Positions 3,813 to 45,083 of a stretch of DNA of 64,000 nt are shown one piece after another. Every line of letters begins with the position of its first letter. The stretch's first letter is position 1. The position numbers were made by a program, and so were the translations under genes. The DNA comes from Naegleria gruberi (taxonomy: Eukaryota), in the NCBI GenBank assembly GCA_000004985.1, contig GG738865.1; one strand, given 5' to 3'. The notes beneath the pieces are model-generated. The model worked only from the letters and a program-made list of their open reading frames with translations, was not told the DNA's origin and did not search any database.

Positions 3813-5122
3813 ATGAATAGTCGGGGGATAAAATCGAGCGGACTAGTAGGGAATGGTTCTACTTCTGCTCTTGTATTATTAATTATCAATGTGATGATGC
3901 TGATAGTAGCGATGAATAATTTCCTAATAATGACGGAAGCAAAATTTGAATTGATTGGACATAGAGGAGCTCCAAATTTGAGACCTGAACATACGTATGA
4001 ATCCTATTTATTGGCTTTTCAACAAGATGCTGATTATATTGAATTTGATGTAATGCCATCTAAAGATGGAGTCCTTATGGTGACTCATAGTTTTGAATTA
4101 ACTGGTAGGTACCTGATTGAAAATCTTTGAGTGTGCTAACTGTTTCTTCTATAGAAATTAGTAATGTTGCCTCTGTGAGCAAATTTTCGGATAGAAAGAA
4201 AACTAAAGTTGTCGATAAGAAATCATATTCTGGATGGTTTATTGAGGATTTTACTGCTTCTGAATTACAGGAATTGAGATTGAGAGAAAGATATCCACAA
4301 GCTAGAACTACCAAGTTTGATGACATCTTTGTCATGCCAACTCTTGAAACAGCACTTGACTATATAATTGCTATTACTCCAAATAATTCTTCTAAAATCA
4401 AGCTCTATATCGAAACAAAGCATCCAACATATTTTGCATCTGCTTTGAATGTCGATGTTAACCAATTGCTTGTTAATGTTTTGGAGAAGTACCATTATCT
4501 TGAATATACCATGTTCCAATCATTTGAAATTTCAAGTATGACTAGTATTCGTACAATTTTGTCCAACAAGAATATTCAACCATTGGGATATGTGATGCTT
4601 TTAGTGGCTAATGGTTCTCAAATTGATAATGGAAGAAATTTTGATGAGTACCTGACTGAGGAAGGTATTGATACAGCAAAGAGTGCTGGTATCACTGGTT
4701 TCGGACCAGCTTGGAAGATGGTTACTAAACCATGGGTTGAATCAGTTCACAAGAGAAATTTAATCATTCACCCATATACTTACAGACCTGAGGAATACTT
4801 TTTGAAACAAACCCCATATACCACCTTCTCTGATTTTATTAAGAGTGCTTTGGAACTTGGTGTTGATGGAGTTTTCACTGAGGACATTGATCAAACCAGA
4901 GCCATTGTTCTTGCCTATGAATCCAATTCAGTTGTGACTGTCTTGCTAATCGTTGCCTTTGTATTCGTTGGAGTTTTATTCATTGTCATTGCTGCCTCTG
5001 TTTTATCAGCTTACCTTTGCAAGAGAAAGACCAATCCATCATCATCAGCCACCCAAAACAGAGAAGAACGTGCAGGTCTTGCCCAACAATCCAATTCCTA
5101 TTCATATAATCAAGATGAATAA
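3813..5122 (+). CDS. Membrane-anchored glycerophosphodiester phosphodiesterase (GDPD family). Exons 3813..4104 and 4155..5122 (50-nt intron).
   Basis: N-terminal signal/TM region followed by the GDPD catalytic signature HRGAPNLRPEHTYESY...EFDV. Donor GTAGGT at 4105 and acceptor ...TTCTATAG at 4153-4154 restore the frame (phase-1 junction gives ...HSFELT-E-ISNVASV...). C-terminal TM helix VVTVLLIVAFVFVGVLFIVIAASVL. Confidence 0.8.
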
Positions 5123-6163: not shown

Positions 6164-7201
6164 ATGTTACATGAAGAAATACCACCTGTTACATCATCTC
6201 TGGAAAATCACAACAATTCATCCCGAATGTTATCCATGATGAAAAATTGTAAACTCACTCCCGAATTGATCTGTGAAGAATTTGAAGGTTTATTGCAACC
6301 TGAGAGAATTTTAAATGTCTACGTGTATGGAAGTAGATTGTATGGTAAATCGGCCGATAATGATTATTATACTATCAATCAAGATTCGGATTTTGATATC
6401 ATGCTTGTTTATGATTTTGATAATTTTCAGGCACCACAAAAGTTGACTTTCCTTTCGAATCAGAAGGAGAATAGAAATTCAGAGTTTTTCCAATTGGAAA
6501 TTCCTCTGTGGATGAAGAGAAGAGAGAGTTTAATTGAAAATAGTGTGGAAAATTCGAATAATGCATCAGAAAATCTCAACGAGATTGAGAAATTCACACC
6601 ACACATGGAGAGGCAAACACTTGAGAATGGTGAAATTATTTACAATTTCAAACAGAAACAATTTGGAGTGGATATGTGCATTTATACAAGAGAGCAATTT
6701 TTGAATCAATTGAAGAAACATCAATTTTCTGAATTGTTGGGTTTGTTTTTGGAGAGAAGCGATGAAGATTATCACAGTTTTATATTGAAAAAGACAGTTG
6801 ACTTTTCTGAAGAGTTTGAAAAGAGTGGAGTTGGAATTCAGTTGAGTAAATTGAGAGCTTCGCTTAGTCAATCAGCGTCTATGGTGTGGAAATGTTGTAG
6901 ATCCATGATGGAACACAGATTGGATTTAGATCCTCCAGAAGTAGAAGTATTCAAAGGCAAAAAGACACTTATTCACACTCTCAGAGTTTATCACTATGGA
7001 ATTCAAATTGCCAAGTTTGGAAAGATTGTGGATTGGCATGAATGTGACAAGTATTATGATGCAATATTCAAACATCCAGAAAAGTACAATTCCTTTAGAG
7101 AATTATCTCAACAATTCAACAAGATTAGACTTGCCTTACATGATGAATTTAGAAATCTTTGTCCAAAAGATGAGACACTAGCAGAGAATGATGAGGAATA
7201 A
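6164..7201 (+). CDS. Pol-β-superfamily nucleotidyltransferase-fold protein (345 aa), subfamily unresolved.
   Basis: Motif YGSRLYGKSADNDYYTI matches the hG[GS]x3Gx(n)SDxD nucleotidyltransferase signature (compare Cid1 FGSFKTGLYLPTSDIDLVV). A further acidic hDh site is at GVDMCIY. The C-terminal helical region contains R-x4-H (CCRSMMEHR), reminiscent of HEPN. Confidence 0.5.
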   Translation: MLHEEIPPVTSSLENHNNSSRMLSMMKNCKLTPELICEEFEGLLQPERILNVYVYGSRLYGKSADNDYYTINQDSDFDIMLVYDFDNFQAPQKLTFLSNQKENRNSEFFQLEIPLWMKRRESLIENSVENSNNASENLNEIEKFTPHMERQTLENGEIIYNFKQKQFGVDMCIYTREQFLNQLKKHQFSELLGLFLERSDEDYHSFILKKTVDFSEEFEKSGVGIQLSKLRASLSQSASMVWKCCRSMMEHRLDLDPPEVEVFKGKKTLIHTLRVYHYGIQIAKFGKIVDWHECDKYYDAIFKHPEKYNSFRELSQQFNKIRLALHDEFRNLCPKDETLAENDEE

Positions 7202-11096: not shown

Positions 11097-13193
11097 ATGA
11101 ATAGACGATCATCTTCTAATTGCTTTATCAATTATTTGCTGATGAATAGTCATCATCATGGCACTACAAGTACAATAAGGAGAACAATGATGAGGAGTTT
11201 AATGAATAATAATAGTGGATTGACAACAACAAAAACAACATTAATTAATAATAATAACCGAGGAGGACATTTGAATATATTGTCATCATCATCAGTATCT
11301 GTTAATAATAATAATAATAGGAGAGAATTTAAAACAAATTATTGGACACAAAGTAAACAGGAAAATGGGAATATTGTTGATCATTCATTGGTCGAAGCCT
11401 TGATTACTTTCGAAAGTTCGAGAAAAAGTGTAAATGATAATTTATCAATTCTTTGTAATCAGAGTGACATTACTGAAGAGAGATTGACATCAATATTAAA
11501 TCAAAAGATTATTGAAAAGTTAGATCCATCAACAATATTTACAATGATGCAATTCTATGCCAAGAAGGGAAATGCTCCAAAAGTTAAGGAATTATATAGA
11601 CACATCAAGAATCCAAATGAGGAATCAAAAAAGCAACTTGTTAAATTGTTGGCTTTGGCTGGTTCTAGATTGAAAACAAAAACAAATCCAGAATCAATCA
11701 CACCAAAGGTGGCAAAGAATTTAATGAAAACAATGCCTTCAAATATCAATGTAGCTCATAAGAGAAGTATTTCTGAGCTTAAAGAGGTAGAGGATGCCTT
11801 GAAAAAGAAAAAAGACAGTGTATCATATACACACAGTGTTGTAATTGAAGCATTCTCAATTAGAGGTAACATGAAACAAGCTGAAACTTATTTTGAAAAT
11901 ATTCAACATGTGAATACTGAAGTTTTAAATTCAATGATTGATGGTTGGATTAGAACTTTGACCAAGAGTGATAAATCTCTCATTGAAGGCCAATCTGAAA
12001 ACACAAGTGAAGAATCATTTAATTTTGTAAAGGGCAGAGTGAATTATTATTTTGATTTATTTGACTTGTACAAGATCAAGAGAGATGTGAGAACCTATGC
12101 CTATTTTCTCAGATTTAAATTTATTGAAGCTCTTTTCGTGGATCCTAAAGATCCAGATGTAAATTCAATTGTAGATTTAATAGAGAGTATGATAAGCAAG
12201 GATAAAATTTCACCAGACAATTATTTCGTCTCGACATTCCTTGCCAGACTGAATACCATACACTCCAAAGCCAAAGTGAAAAAGCTTTACAGTACCTATA
12301 AGAAACACCTCCTCAAAGTTAAAGTCACAAATGCCAATAATTTAGCCATCCTCACCACACTTGCCAACTCGAAATGTATTCCAGAAGCTCTTTCATTGTT
12401 TGAACACTTGAAAAAGTCACTTCCAACAAATGAAAAGACCACTGCTTATGAAATTATGATTTCCATGTTCTTGGAGAGTGATGACGAGGCAGCTATTGTG
12501 TTAATTGATGACATGATTCAAAAGAAAGTACCTAGATCCTCTAAAACTTACTACTCTGTTCTCAACTACTTTTCACAACAAGGCAATCACAAGGCAGTGT
12601 CCAAATATTTCCAACTCTTACAGGTTGAGGGGGTTTCGTTGACTCCAGAAATTCTCAAAGTATCCCTAAAGAGTTTAGCTTTAACGAGAAGTAAGAAACA
12701 AGTAATGGACATTCTCAAGAGAGCAGAAACTGAGAATTATCTCACTGAGGAAAGTTGTTCTTCATTTATTGGAACTTATGGACTTTTGGAAGAATTGGAA
12801 GAAGCTGAAAGAGTTTTCAATCTTTTCAAAGATACAAACATGCTGGATATTTACAATGAAATGTTATGTACATATGTTAATCACTCATGTGTTGGTGATG
12901 CCATCACTCTCTATTTGGATTATCCAATGAAGGGTGATATTTTCACGTATGAAACTCTTGTTGGAGCTTTGGGTATTTCAAAAGAGTATTCTGCCATTTT
13001 ACAAATTCACAAAATCATGATCAAGCTTGGTATTCGACCAACTTTTAAATATTATGATCAACTCATTGATATTCTCACCAAGGAACCAGTAACGGATCCA
13101 GAAGTTAAATCCTTCCTCCAATCTCTCCCAGATGAAATGTCTCAATTCAACATTGGACAAATTGAACAATTAATCATGAGACTTTTGTTTTAA
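11097..13193 (+). CDS. Pentatricopeptide-repeat (PPR)-like helical repeat protein, probably organellar (698 aa).
   Basis: N-terminal R/S-rich presequence. Repeated ~35-aa helical units with PPR-like motifs (YTHSVVIEAFSIRGNMKQAETYFENI; TAYEIMISMFLESDDEAAIVLIDDMIQK; FTYETLVGALGISKEYSAILQIHKIM). Confidence 0.55.
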   Translation: MNRRSSSNCFINYLLMNSHHHGTTSTIRRTMMRSLMNNNSGLTTTKTTLINNNNRGGHLNILSSSSVSVNNNNNRREFKTNYWTQSKQENGNIVDHSLVEALITFESSRKSVNDNLSILCNQSDITEERLTSILNQKIIEKLDPSTIFTMMQFYAKKGNAPKVKELYRHIKNPNEESKKQLVKLLALAGSRLKTKTNPESITPKVAKNLMKTMPSNINVAHKRSISELKEVEDALKKKKDSVSYTHSVVIEAFSIRGNMKQAETYFENIQHVNTEVLNSMIDGWIRTLTKSDKSLIEGQSENTSEESFNFVKGRVNYYFDLFDLYKIKRDVRTYAYFLRFKFIEALFVDPKDPDVNSIVDLIESMISKDKISPDNYFVSTFLARLNTIHSKAKVKKLYSTYKKHLLKVKVTNANNLAILTTLANSKCIPEALSLFEHLKKSLPTNEKTTAYEIMISMFLESDDEAAIVLIDDMIQKKVPRSSKTYYSVLNYFSQQGNHKAVSKYFQLLQVEGVSLTPEILKVSLKSLALTRSKKQVMDILKRAETENYLTEESCSSFIGTYGLLEELEEAERVFNLFKDTNMLDIYNEMLCTYVNHSCVGDAITLYLDYPMKGDIFTYETLVGALGISKEYSAILQIHKIMIKLGIRPTFKYYDQLIDILTKEPVTDPEVKSFLQSLPDEMSQFNIGQIEQLIMRLLF

Positions 13194-13409
13194 AGTATTA
13201 AAGTAAATAGTTTATTATTGATTAATAGTGATTACTAATAGGTGCTAGGTGCTAATATTCAAGGTTATTAAGAATTTAAGAGAAATGCCCCCTTTGTGGG
13301 GAACAAGATTTTTTGTTATTAGCCGTGTGCTGGTTTTTCAAACACATTTTCGCGCCAATTTTCTGACCGTTACCATTATTAAAATACTCCAAAAAAATAA
13401 CAACAAGGT

Positions 13410-15455
13410 ATGCCTCCACCTCCTCCTTCAACATCTTCATCATCAACACCAAGAGGAAAGGCAATGCGATCTGCTTTTCTACCACCCGAAACCCCATTAT
13501 CAACCAAAATTAGAAAACCAATCAGGGCCACTCCTTCTTCTTCAACTTCCTCATCGACCAATGGCACTAAGCTACAAGAACAAGAACAGCTACAAGACCA
13601 ATGTATTAAAGTGTACATTAGAATTCGTCCGAACGATGATCATGACCAATTACAAATTGAATTTCTCAACAATTCTTCAATTCAAGTCACGTGTAAAAAT
13701 CAAGAAAAGGCAGATACACCAAAAGTATTCCTATTTGATCAGGTTTTGGATGAAAATGTTTCTCAGCAACAAGTTTTTGATTTGATTGGTGTTCCAGTTG
13801 TTGAAGAACTTCTTCAGGGGTTCAATGCTTCCATTTTAGGTTATGGACATACAGGATCTGGTAAAACATTTACAATGGGAACTAATCTTCATGAGATTGC
13901 AGATTCCTTTGAGAGTGGCAATTTGCCTGCTGCTTGTGGTTTATTGCCACGAATTGTTGAAAGGTTGCTAAACAGGAAGAAAGTGGACGAACAATTAAGC
14001 TGCTCCTTATTTGAAATTTATAATGGAGGAGTTTATGATTTATTTGGAGAGGCCAGCAAAAAGTGTAAGGTCAAGTATTCAAACGGTGTGGATGTTGTGA
14101 CCAATGCTAAAAAGAAGCTTATTCATTCACTGTCTGATCTTTCTTCCATTTCGTCTGGTTTAAAAAGGAGACATCAAAGTGCAACTGGACAAAATCTATC
14201 CTCATCAAGATCACACTGCATCTTTAGATTGTTTATCACAACTGCAGACAATACTGAAAGATGCCTAAACATGGTTGACTTGGCTGGATCTGAACGTCAA
14301 AAAACTGCCAACATTCACGCTGATAAAATGTTACTAGATGAAGCAAATTACATTAATACTTCATTGACAGTTTTGAAAAGATGCATTGAAGCAGTCTATA
14401 ATAATCAATCCAATACTGATAAGAAGACACTAGTTCCATACAGGGAAGATAATCTTGCCTTATTGTTGCATTCAACTTTGGAAGGAAATTCAAAAACTTT
14501 CTTTATTGGAAATATTGGAACTGCAAGTGAATCGATATCAACTTTGAATTATGCACAAACGGCAAGAAAGATTAAAAAGATGACTAGCAAGTTGAGTTCA
14601 ATGTTGAAGAAGAAATCAGGAGGATTGTTTGAAGAGGAAATTGAAAAGTTAAAGAAAGAGTTGGAAGAAACTAAGGGTAAATTGGATGAGGAAAGAGATA
14701 GCAAGACCAAACATATTGAAGAACTCTCACAGAAAATTGCATTATTAGAAACTAAACAACAGGAAGCTAATGAAATTCTCAAACAATCGAATACCATTAT
14801 AGAAGAGATGCAAATCAGAGACGATTCTCTGAAAGAAATTTGCTCAGAAAAAGAAGAAATTATTTCAAATCTCTTTGAAGAATTGTCAAAAGCCAGAAAA
14901 GAAAGCGAGCTCTTGGAGAAGGACAATTCAACATTGAAGAGTGAAAATTCAATTCTTTTGGAAGCAATTGAAAATCAATGTGAAATCATTAGACAACGAG
15001 ATAAGGAACATGATTCAGCTTTCCAAAATTTGAAAGAGCAACTAGACGAATATCAAAAACAGTCATCCTCAAAGACTCTTACAATTCAAACTCTGCGAGA
15101 TGAATTGAAAAAAAAGGACAAAATCATACAGAGAAAATCTTCAACTACTGCAGAACAACTTTATCAGACCATTGAAAATTTACTTAAAACAATTGAAGAT
15201 CAAAAGAAGACAATTCACATGTTTTTGAATGGAACGATGGAAGTTGTGGATATTGATAAGGAAGAAGCTCATGATGGTAATTCATGTGATAGTGATGATG
15301 ATGATGAGAAGGTGATGTCTGATTCTCCAGTTGTGAAATCAAACAAACGAAAGGTAATTTCTCCACTCCAAAATATTGTCTATGAATCAACAGATGAAAA
15401 TAATGAACCAGAATGTAAATATTCAAAATCTGATTTATTAGAATATTTAAAATAA
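13410..15455 (+). CDS. Kinesin family member: N-terminal motor domain plus coiled-coil tail (681 aa).
   Basis: P-loop GYGHTGSGKTFTMGT, switch I SSRSHCIF, switch II DLAGSER. Long coiled coil after residue ~400. Overlapping ORFs 13249..13785 and 14549..14926 are out-of-frame shadows. Confidence 0.85.
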   Translation: MPPPPPSTSSSSTPRGKAMRSAFLPPETPLSTKIRKPIRATPSSSTSSSTNGTKLQEQEQLQDQCIKVYIRIRPNDDHDQLQIEFLNNSSIQVTCKNQEKADTPKVFLFDQVLDENVSQQQVFDLIGVPVVEELLQGFNASILGYGHTGSGKTFTMGTNLHEIADSFESGNLPAACGLLPRIVERLLNRKKVDEQLSCSLFEIYNGGVYDLFGEASKKCKVKYSNGVDVVTNAKKKLIHSLSDLSSISSGLKRRHQSATGQNLSSSRSHCIFRLFITTADNTERCLNMVDLAGSERQKTANIHADKMLLDEANYINTSLTVLKRCIEAVYNNQSNTDKKTLVPYREDNLALLLHSTLEGNSKTFFIGNIGTASESISTLNYAQTARKIKKMTSKLSSMLKKKSGGLFEEEIEKLKKELEETKGKLDEERDSKTKHIEELSQKIALLETKQQEANEILKQSNTIIEEMQIRDDSLKEICSEKEEIISNLFEELSKARKESELLEKDNSTLKSENSILLEAIENQCEIIRQRDKEHDSAFQNLKEQLDEYQKQSSSKTLTIQTLRDELKKKDKIIQRKSSTTAEQLYQTIENLLKTIEDQKKTIHMFLNGTMEVVDIDKEEAHDGNSCDSDDDDEKVMSDSPVVKSNKRKVISPLQNIVYESTDENNEPECKYSKSDLLEYLK

Positions 15456-45011: not shown

Positions 45012-45083
45012 TCCCGTGTGGTCCAATGGCTAAGATACCTGGCTCTCACCCAGGAGATCCGGGTTCAATTCCCGGCACGGGAG
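45012..45083 (+). tRNA. tRNA-Glu (anticodon CUC).
   Basis: Cloverleaf: acceptor TCCCGTG/CACGGGA+G, anticodon stem CCTGG/CCAGG with loop CTCTCAC (anticodon CTC), T-arm CCGGG-TTCAATT-CCCGG. Closely resembles eukaryotic tRNA-Glu. T5 run follows at 45090..45094. Confidence 0.9.

Follow-up and report, generated by a model that had tools for sequence, protein, structure and literature searches.

The bacterial and phage RlaP enzymes (PF10127) take their name from a linkage to RNA ligases, and their predicted role is to replace nucleotides that damaged RNA ends have lost (PMC7824862). The biochemistry of Pseudomonas RlaP was described in a 2025 preprint (PMC12776372). That enzyme adds 1-2 nucleoside monophosphates (NMP, or dNMP) to the 3'-OH of RNA, is inactive on DNA and protein, prefers Mn2+, favours mimics of nicked tRNA and restores the aminoacylation of over-trimmed tRNA that has lost an extra nucleotide, and its architecture consists of a nucleotidyltransferase (NTase) domain and a helical domain that form a cleft (PMC12776372). 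Here, a stretch of 64,000 nucleotides from contig GG738865.1 of Naegleria gruberi (the window) was investigated, in which positions 6164-7201 of the plus strand hold a complete uninterrupted coding sequence of 345 amino acids (aa) plus stop in the list of open reading frames (ORFs), that of the nucleotidyltransferase NAEGRDRAFT_67016. We found that its product is a catalytically intact two-domain NTase of the Pol-beta superfamily and a previously unrecognised distant relative of the bacterial and phage RlaP RNA-repair enzymes, the closest family of the Naegleria protein and one that the original prediction had overlooked.

The relationship to RlaP emerged from a compact family of homologues. 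Conservation was counted in alignments of 7, 43 and 147 homologues, and fractions of 43 refer to the 43 aligned homologues. Thirty-nine of the 43 family members matched phrog_388 (PHROGs), which T4 NrdC.11 matches end to end (E 2e-135) and which thus joins the family to a protein that also passes PF10127. When the compact family was compared by hhalign with an alignment of T4-type RlaP, assembled from phage records for diversity (the T4 NrdC.11 search listed only close T4-like sequences), the probability was 95.6% (E 1.2e-8), and the match extended from the G-S motif to the third Asp and on to the next helix (HHIIALE vs. GEPVALDML), past the generic NTase core. D170 of the Naegleria protein was paired in this way with the third Asp of T4 NrdC.11-type RlaP. 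T4-type RlaP and the compact family have in common GSxxYG(T)xTxxSDxD with equal spacing, the third Asp followed by an 'ALE/ALD-ML..P' helix, and a C-terminal helical domain; both occur in large phages and match phrog_388. The C-terminal helix motif K-x3-H-x2-R is invariant in T4-type RlaP too (K242, H246, R249), with identical spacing (KSLFHSLR vs. KALSHACR). Moreover, the Balamuthia mandrillaris protein KAL6080515.1 cleared the PF10127 threshold with a match that spans positions 19-237 of the 249-position profile, and it matched the Naegleria protein by BLASTP (E 8e-13) over residues 36-299, which include both domains. PF10127 was matched at E<1e-3 by 1 of 43 and 13 of 147 relatives, with P0135 (Balamuthia, 25.9 bits) and P0080 (Entosiphon, 28.2 bits) above its threshold. 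On the other hand, T4-type RlaP is 336 aa long and carries an insert of ~130 residues, whereas the family core of 200-260 aa has none, and the Naegleria protein differs further by its own insertions at residues 62-74 and 85-165.

The conservation pattern located the active site. G56 (43/43), S57 (42/43), Y60 (43/43) and G61 (41/43) form the first motif; D76 (43/43) and D78 (42/43) follow S75 (40/43) in the context S-D-F-D-I-M-L; and the D170 column, in the context F-G-V-D-M-C-I, holds Asp in 39 and Glu in 3 of the 43 homologues. The third catalytic carboxylate, for which the original prediction had recommended a check, was thus found. The conserved catalytic set is G56-S57, D76-x-D78 and D170, i.e. 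the classic Pol-beta NTase set, and because this set is conserved the Naegleria enzyme is probably active. The original prediction had placed the active site in GSRLYGKSADNDY, which is indeed present and spans G56 to D67, but its 'SADND' acids did not hold up. They fall in a loop of variable length that links the G-S motif to the following strand; only 2 of 43 homologues have Asp at D65 and D67, the D67 column consists mostly of gaps, and at this very loop the N. fowleri protein is interrupted by some 60 aa of low complexity. The true acids are D76, D78 and D170. In the C-terminal half, K267, H271, R274, Q281 and A283 are each present in 43 of 43 homologues and lie on one long helix, and among 147 further cluster representatives the K and R of K-x3-H-x2-R were invariant and the H was found in at least 90%. 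This signature helix probably lines the cleft that would hold nucleoside triphosphate (NTP) and RNA.

An AlphaFold2 (AF2) model built on the 43-sequence alignment reached a predicted local distance difference test (pLDDT) of 86.3 and a predicted template-modelling score (pTM) of 0.85. Its fold, its three carboxylates and its matches among solved structures bear out the proposal that the protein belongs to the Pol-beta superfamily. The two N-terminal helices and the long last helix (residues 311-332) of the model are consistent with RlaP. The best solved-structure matches were two-domain NTases, namely ANT(4')/KNTase (6p01), LinB (3jyy), ANT(3'')(9) (7uy4, 181 residues aligned) and HalB (9dbh). 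The first three share with the Naegleria protein a Pol-beta NTase domain and a helical C-terminal domain that form a cleft, and they suggest a small-molecule NTase of ANT(4')/LinB type that would adenylylate a hydroxyl of an antibiotic-like compound or metabolite. We consider this improbable. The template-modelling (TM) scores were low (0.25-0.35) at 8-12% identity, there is no sequence-level relationship, the KNTase_C and ANT Pfam models were unmatched, and the conserved residues of the C-terminal domain and the biological setting differ. Most of the family belongs to jumbo phages and giant viruses, for which drug resistance would have no evident use, and its ties at the sequence level go to RlaP.

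HalB, the oligo-dA synthase of Hailong, brings in a signal synthase of a conflict system, HalB- or CD-NTase-like, which would make free oligonucleotides or cyclic nucleotides. Apart from the structural match, the evidence argues against such a role, and we regard it as just as improbable as the small-molecule activity. HalB was unmatched at the sequence level in the PDB profile search; the Naegleria protein had no PADLOC match and its relatives matched the generic NTase core only; the Mab-21, SMODS and CD-NTase Pfam models were unmatched and none appeared in the top 50-60 structural matches; and the phage loci have no conserved effector-like partner gene, while in eukaryotes the gene stands alone. 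The leaning of the original prediction towards cGAS-like or CD-NTase enzymes was therefore abandoned, as neither a Mab-21 or SMODS profile or structural match nor a PADLOC defence model match was obtained, and a cGAS/CD-NTase identity was rejected.

Predicted viral structures (BFVD) matched the Naegleria model far better than the solved structures, with NTases of 203-230 aa from Klosneuvirus, Terrestrivirus and an unnamed virus at TM 0.73-0.79 (normalised to the viral protein) and E 6e-9 to 1e-7; Bacillus phage G gp218 also matched. The compact viral NTases of 200-230 aa, which include Klosneuvirus KNV1 A0A1V0SHU2, Terrestrivirus A0A3G4ZNK3, Bacillus phage G gp109, Bacillus phage Sophrita gp159 and ORFs of Lak megaphages, resemble the Naegleria protein in sequence family, fold and invariant residues. 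They differ in that the heterolobosean insertions are missing and the N-terminal extension is incomplete, and they are annotated 'nucleotidyltransferase' or hypothetical. The larger insertion (residues 85-165) sits between the DxD strand and the third-carboxylate strand, is absent in phage homologues of 200-260 aa and varies in length among Naegleria species and P0075, and the N-terminal helices align with the N-terminal extension of a phage subgroup of 255 aa. Modules of two longer viral proteins matched the Naegleria model as well: Yasminevirus A0A5K0U7I7 (1081 aa, annotated Endonuclease V, E 2.6e-8) and Terrestrivirus A0A3G4ZN96 (794 aa, annotated putative exonuclease, E 2.1e-7). Judged from these models, both would be nucleic-acid end-processing fusions of the compact NTase.

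In general profile searches, Pfam gave Polbeta PF18765 over residues 47-90 (E 0.0015, below its threshold), NTP_transf_2 or Polbeta matches were present in 28-31 of the 43 relatives, the NCBIfam scan of the Naegleria protein returned noise only, and a PDB sequence search with the single protein and with the 43-sequence profile gave nothing significant, its best match being a minimal NTase (E 0.025). Polbeta was the sole Pfam match at E<=10, so that the absence of a PAP-associated domain, already remarked on in the original prediction, stands. This bears on an RNA-tailing enzyme for turnover or maturation, which would resemble a minimal non-canonical poly(A)/poly(U) polymerase and mark protist RNAs for decay or processing. 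Its chemistry would be the same as that of RNA repair, four family members (E 0.0047) and 10 of the 147 representatives gave weak matches to an MTPAP-like central palm domain, and the gene is eukaryotic, stand-alone, constitutive-looking and set among housekeeping neighbours. However, neither PF03828 (the PAP-associated domain, no match at E<=10) nor a PAP/TUTase central domain was matched above threshold, the C-terminal domain is of the RlaP/KNTase type and not of the PAP type, and TUT4 (5kal) ranked only 17th in Foldseek (E 0.33). A tailing role is thus unlikely in our view, albeit somewhat less so than the small-molecule and signalling activities. A Cid1/TUTase poly(A)/poly(U) polymerase as such was rejected, as PF03828 was unmatched.

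The original prediction had also proposed a HEPN-like C-terminal helical domain. The helical domain is there in the model, but the R-x4-H motif on which the HEPN proposal leaned is not conserved: the R246 column holds Arg in 2, His in 29 and Lys in 7 of 43 homologues, and the H251 column His in 6 and Val in 36. A HEPN RNase site was excluded on these counts. They also largely refute a fused MNT-HEPN-like module, in which the C-terminal bundle would be HEPN and the protein would be a toxin-antitoxin relic that has degenerated or an enzyme that AMPylates proteins; this is the least probable of the explanations weighed, and we think it very improbable. In contrast to MntA-HepT (MNT/HEPN), the Naegleria protein is a single fused polypeptide without the conserved R-x4-6-H and without a partner gene. 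A minimal NTase (MNT) antitoxin, a single domain of ~100-140 aa with a HEPN gene, was likewise rejected: the protein has 345 aa and two domains, and its gene neighbours are those of a membrane protein and a carboxyltransferase. As proposed originally, it is a stand-alone protein.

Gene context was surveyed at 80 viral loci. RnlA, PNK, Rnl2-like or Thg1 genes lay within 10 kb in 22 of them, and an RnlA-type RNA ligase was no more than 1.8 kb away in seven of the nine loci possessing one, which represent few independent lineages. In Bacillus phages Sophrita and PK-3 an RnlA-type RNA ligase and PNK are found 2-5 genes from the NTase, gp109 of phage G adjoins a tRNA array, and in the first-identified phage subgroup an Rnl2-like ligase, Thg1 and PNK are encoded within 3-9 kb of the NTase. 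Arrays of at least three tRNA genes occurred in only 11 of the 80 loci. The viral context is suggestive at most, being compatible with RNA repair and not compelling.

Reasoning from homology alone, we propose that the Naegleria protein may be an RlaP-like, template-independent RNA 3'-end nucleotidyltransferase, a function to which we assign about even chances. Its substrate and biological role in Naegleria would follow wholly by inference from the distant relatives. The NTase and helical domains would form a cleft in which the three carboxylates would hold two divalent metals and the NTP, and K267, H271 and R274 might contact the triphosphate, the RNA end or both. The 3'-OH of an RNA, e.g. a damaged or trimmed tRNA, would then receive one or a few nucleotides in a template-independent reaction, which could make the end usable for ligation or function. 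Several observations weigh against this proposal. PF10127 did not match the Naegleria protein even at E<=10 (gathering threshold 23 bits), and only about 9% of the family matches it, the remaining about 90% being without a match like the Naegleria protein itself. When the C-terminal halves were aligned alone, hhalign paired the K-x3-H-x2-R helix at E 0.008 with a probability of only 4.9%. The PfRlaP structure was found neither among the solved-structure matches nor among the PDB sequence-search matches, and T4-like RlaP was only a weak structural match to the Naegleria model (BFVD rank 25, E 5e-3). Enrichment of RnlA, PNK, Rnl2-like and Thg1 within +-10 kb on 60 viral contigs of at least 100 kb (7, 6, 3 and 6 loci, respectively, vs. 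a conservative random expectation of 5.3) was not significant, and the gene context in the eukaryote is uninformative on function. Furthermore, the characterised RlaP enzymes (Pseudomonas, cluster 1a) are distant, so a transfer of their activity would be an extrapolation. Because the Naegleria protein fails the Pfam test, we call it RlaP-like and not a certified PF10127 member; on sequence grounds it appears to represent a divergent branch that the PF10127 model misses.

The result is a useful re-annotation, a divergent RlaP-like protein rather than a new kind of system. A 'predicted protein' conserved across Naegleria, the pathogen N. fowleri among them, gains a function that can be tested, its public gene model is corrected, and a clade of RlaP-like enzymes is recognised in protists. 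The analysis also indicates that the Pfam RlaP model overlooks a large branch of compact proteins (about 1000 clusters at 50% identity) that is common among jumbo phages and giant viruses. Should the proposed repair of RNA 3' ends prove true, RlaP-type repair would no longer be confined to bacteria and phages but would include eukaryotic microbes, and the Naegleria protein would be a convenient soluble candidate for biochemistry.

The extent of the family was determined by a profile search of 1.84 billion cluster representatives (clusters at 50% identity), which gave 996 clusters at E<=1e-3 and 501 at E<=1e-10, with lengths mostly of 195-260 aa. The family is present in jumbo phages and giant viruses and, among eukaryotes, in a clade of free-living protists. 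The GenBank phage members belong to Lak megaphages, Bacillus phage G (gp109) and many Bacillus phages of 140-170 kb, in which they are annotated as 'nucleotidyltransferase' or hypothetical only. IMG/VR contributed 133 confirmed loci, most of them on contigs of 100-550 kb, while 185,579 prokaryotic species genomes contained only 11 loci, all but one of them on contigs of metagenome-assembled genomes (MAGs). At least one such MAG contig with a family locus is identical to an IMG/VR viral contig: L023, from a GTDB 'Pacearchaeota' MAG, and L075, from IMG/VR, are the same 425,361-bp contig, which is probably a jumbo phage binned into an archaeal MAG.

Some members are fused to other domains. Four metagenomic proteins of about 420-440 aa (P0028, P0029, P0034 and P0044; e.g. 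L009 1142-2401) carry a C-terminal YqeY domain (PF09424, GatB/YqeY type). Domains of the GatB/YqeY type are tRNA-associated, and these fusions give a hint of an RNA or tRNA substrate. An F-box follows the NTase at the C-terminus of P0169 (196 aa) and P0199 (278 aa), and in P0080 of Entosiphon sulcatum (618 aa) the whole two-domain NTase is tandemly duplicated. The N-terminus of the heterolobosean-like orthologue P0005 (L016 2900-4006) has an extra basic, acid-free stretch of ~40 aa that begins with MFKSFSITKCQTLRPNTFNALKYGYRAFSCGKSAK and resembles an organelle-targeting peptide; the Naegleria proteins are without it.

The distribution, which the original prediction had suggested examining, proved patchy and linked to viruses, and it also includes a protist clade. 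Protist members were found in Heterolobosea including Naegleria, in the euglenid Entosiphon and in the amoebozoans Balamuthia, Rhizamoeba and Luapelamoeba. A neighbour-joining tree of 180 sequences (197 columns, 200 bootstraps), from which the giant-virus sequences were left out, recovered the seven heterolobosean sequences as monophyletic (194/200) and joined them with five further proteins in a clade (157/200); a wider group of about 21 sequences had weaker support (112/200). Three of the five further proteins were checked and lie in plainly eukaryotic context (histone H2A, importin-alpha, SF3a, protein kinases). Within the wider group or directly beside it are Balamuthia, two Rhizamoeba saxonica paralogues, Luapelamoeba hula proteins and the two C-terminal F-box proteins. 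A recent transfer from phage to Naegleria, with the 255-aa phage subgroup as the nearest relative, was considered and rejected, since the tree and the gene contexts make eukaryotic proteins the nearest relatives. Therefore, the Naegleria gene is not a Naegleria-only capture from phage; it belongs to a patchy protist clade beside a very large viral radiation. Tentatively, and with considerable doubt, phagotrophic free-living protists might share a virus-related clade of RlaP-like RNA-end NTases that was exchanged with giant viruses and jumbo phages and that forms part of an undescribed eukaryotic pathway for repairing tRNA or rRNA cut by ribotoxins of bacterial prey or during giant-virus infection. 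On a protist contig carrying one of the homologues (L124, JGI 3300062135), positions 12240-13454 encode a 404-aa protein with DarT (a toxin that ADP-ribosylates single-stranded DNA) and Macro domains; its gene neighbours are clearly eukaryotic (importin-alpha, SF3a), and the NTase homologue is about 4.5 kb away.

The coding sequence at 6164-7201 is a real gene. Since the window has only ~34% G+C, a chance origin of a frame of 345 codons is very unlikely: stops make up ~7% of random codons, which by our own estimate gives a chance of roughly 4e-12 per start. Homologues of the 345-aa protein were found at E 1e-223 to 1e-73. The nearest has 350 aa and 97% identity over its full length (E 1.8e-223), the orthologues of N. 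fowleri and N. lovaniensis show 48% identity (E about 1e-102 to 1e-104), and two or three further, more distant metagenome sequences match as well. Over residues 26-307 the protein matches N. gruberi XP_002677691.1 (NAEGRDRAFT_67016) with 100% identity, so the window is nuclear DNA of N. gruberi. The surrounding genes are ordinary eukaryotic ones, encoding a GDPD phosphodiesterase, a carboxyltransferase of the methylcrotonoyl/propionyl-CoA carboxylase type, a PPR protein and kinesin; the orthologues P0004 and P0005 likewise have eukaryotic genes around them, and in N. lovaniensis the gene is part of a genomic scaffold of 444 kb. These neighbours, here and around the orthologues, argue that the gene is not contamination. 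A literature search found no mention of the NAEGRDRAFT_67016 locus tags.

The public model XP_002677691.1 (300 aa) appears from the comparison to be truncated at both ends. It starts at M26 and departs from the 345-aa ORF after residue 307, and its tail LDLPYMMNLEIFVQKM corresponds to the +1 frame of 7125-7181. The uninterrupted frame retains W/F311, N/L323 and C333-P334-K335, all of which are conserved in phage homologues, and so the 3' end of the public model, which lacks the conserved C-terminal helix and the CPK motif, is probably wrong and its intron of 40 nucleotides is a probable artefact. The features of the gene are listed in Table 1.

Table 1. Features of the RlaP-like nucleotidyltransferase gene, in window coordinates
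Feature	Position	Strand	Basis
Two N-terminal helices preceding the NTase sheet, residues 12-39	6197..6280	+	AF2 helices 12-27 and 33-39
Strand beta-1 and G56-S57-x2-Y60-G61 motif (hG[GS] loop of Pol-beta NTases)	6308..6346	+	Conservation; Pfam Polbeta
Variable loop, residues 62-74, with 'SADND' (63-67); predicted non-catalytic	6347..6385	+	Conservation; pLDDT about 67
S75-D76-F77-D78, predicted metal-binding DxD carboxylates on strand beta-2	6386..6397	+	Conservation; strand 77-83 in AF2 model
Heterolobosean-specific insertion, ~residues 85-165, two helices and a hairpin	6416..6658	+	Alignments; AF2 pLDDT 66-89
D170, predicted third catalytic carboxylate, strand 169-174	6671..6673	+	Conservation; hhalign
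C-terminal all-helical domain, residues 176-332	6689..7159	+	AF2 model
R246-x4-H251 (R246-SMME-H251), earlier HEPN candidate motif, not conserved	6899..6916	+	Conservation
Signature helix, residues 258-285, with K267, H271, R274, Q281, A283	6935..7018	+	Conservation
Probable spurious intron, GT...AG, 40 nt	7084..7123	+	Coordinates inferred from protein alignment, not from a database record
C333-P334-K335, conserved C-terminal motif	7160..7168	+	C 39/43, P 40/43, K 42/43

Elsewhere in the window, the gene of the GDPD (glycerophosphodiester phosphodiesterase) protein is divided between two plus-strand ORFs in different frames, 3813-4130 and 4127-5122, of which the first holds positions 1-47 and the second positions 50-243 of the Pfam GDPD profile; a short intron or a frameshift is presumed at about 4100-4200. 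The C-terminal end of the second ORF is a hydrophobic segment resembling a membrane anchor. The plus-strand ORF at 211-1458 matches RADX (an RPA-related OB-fold protein, E 5e-11) and DUF5088, families associated mainly with animals. The sole tRNA gene found in the window is that of tRNA-Glu(CUC), at 45012-45083 on the plus strand.

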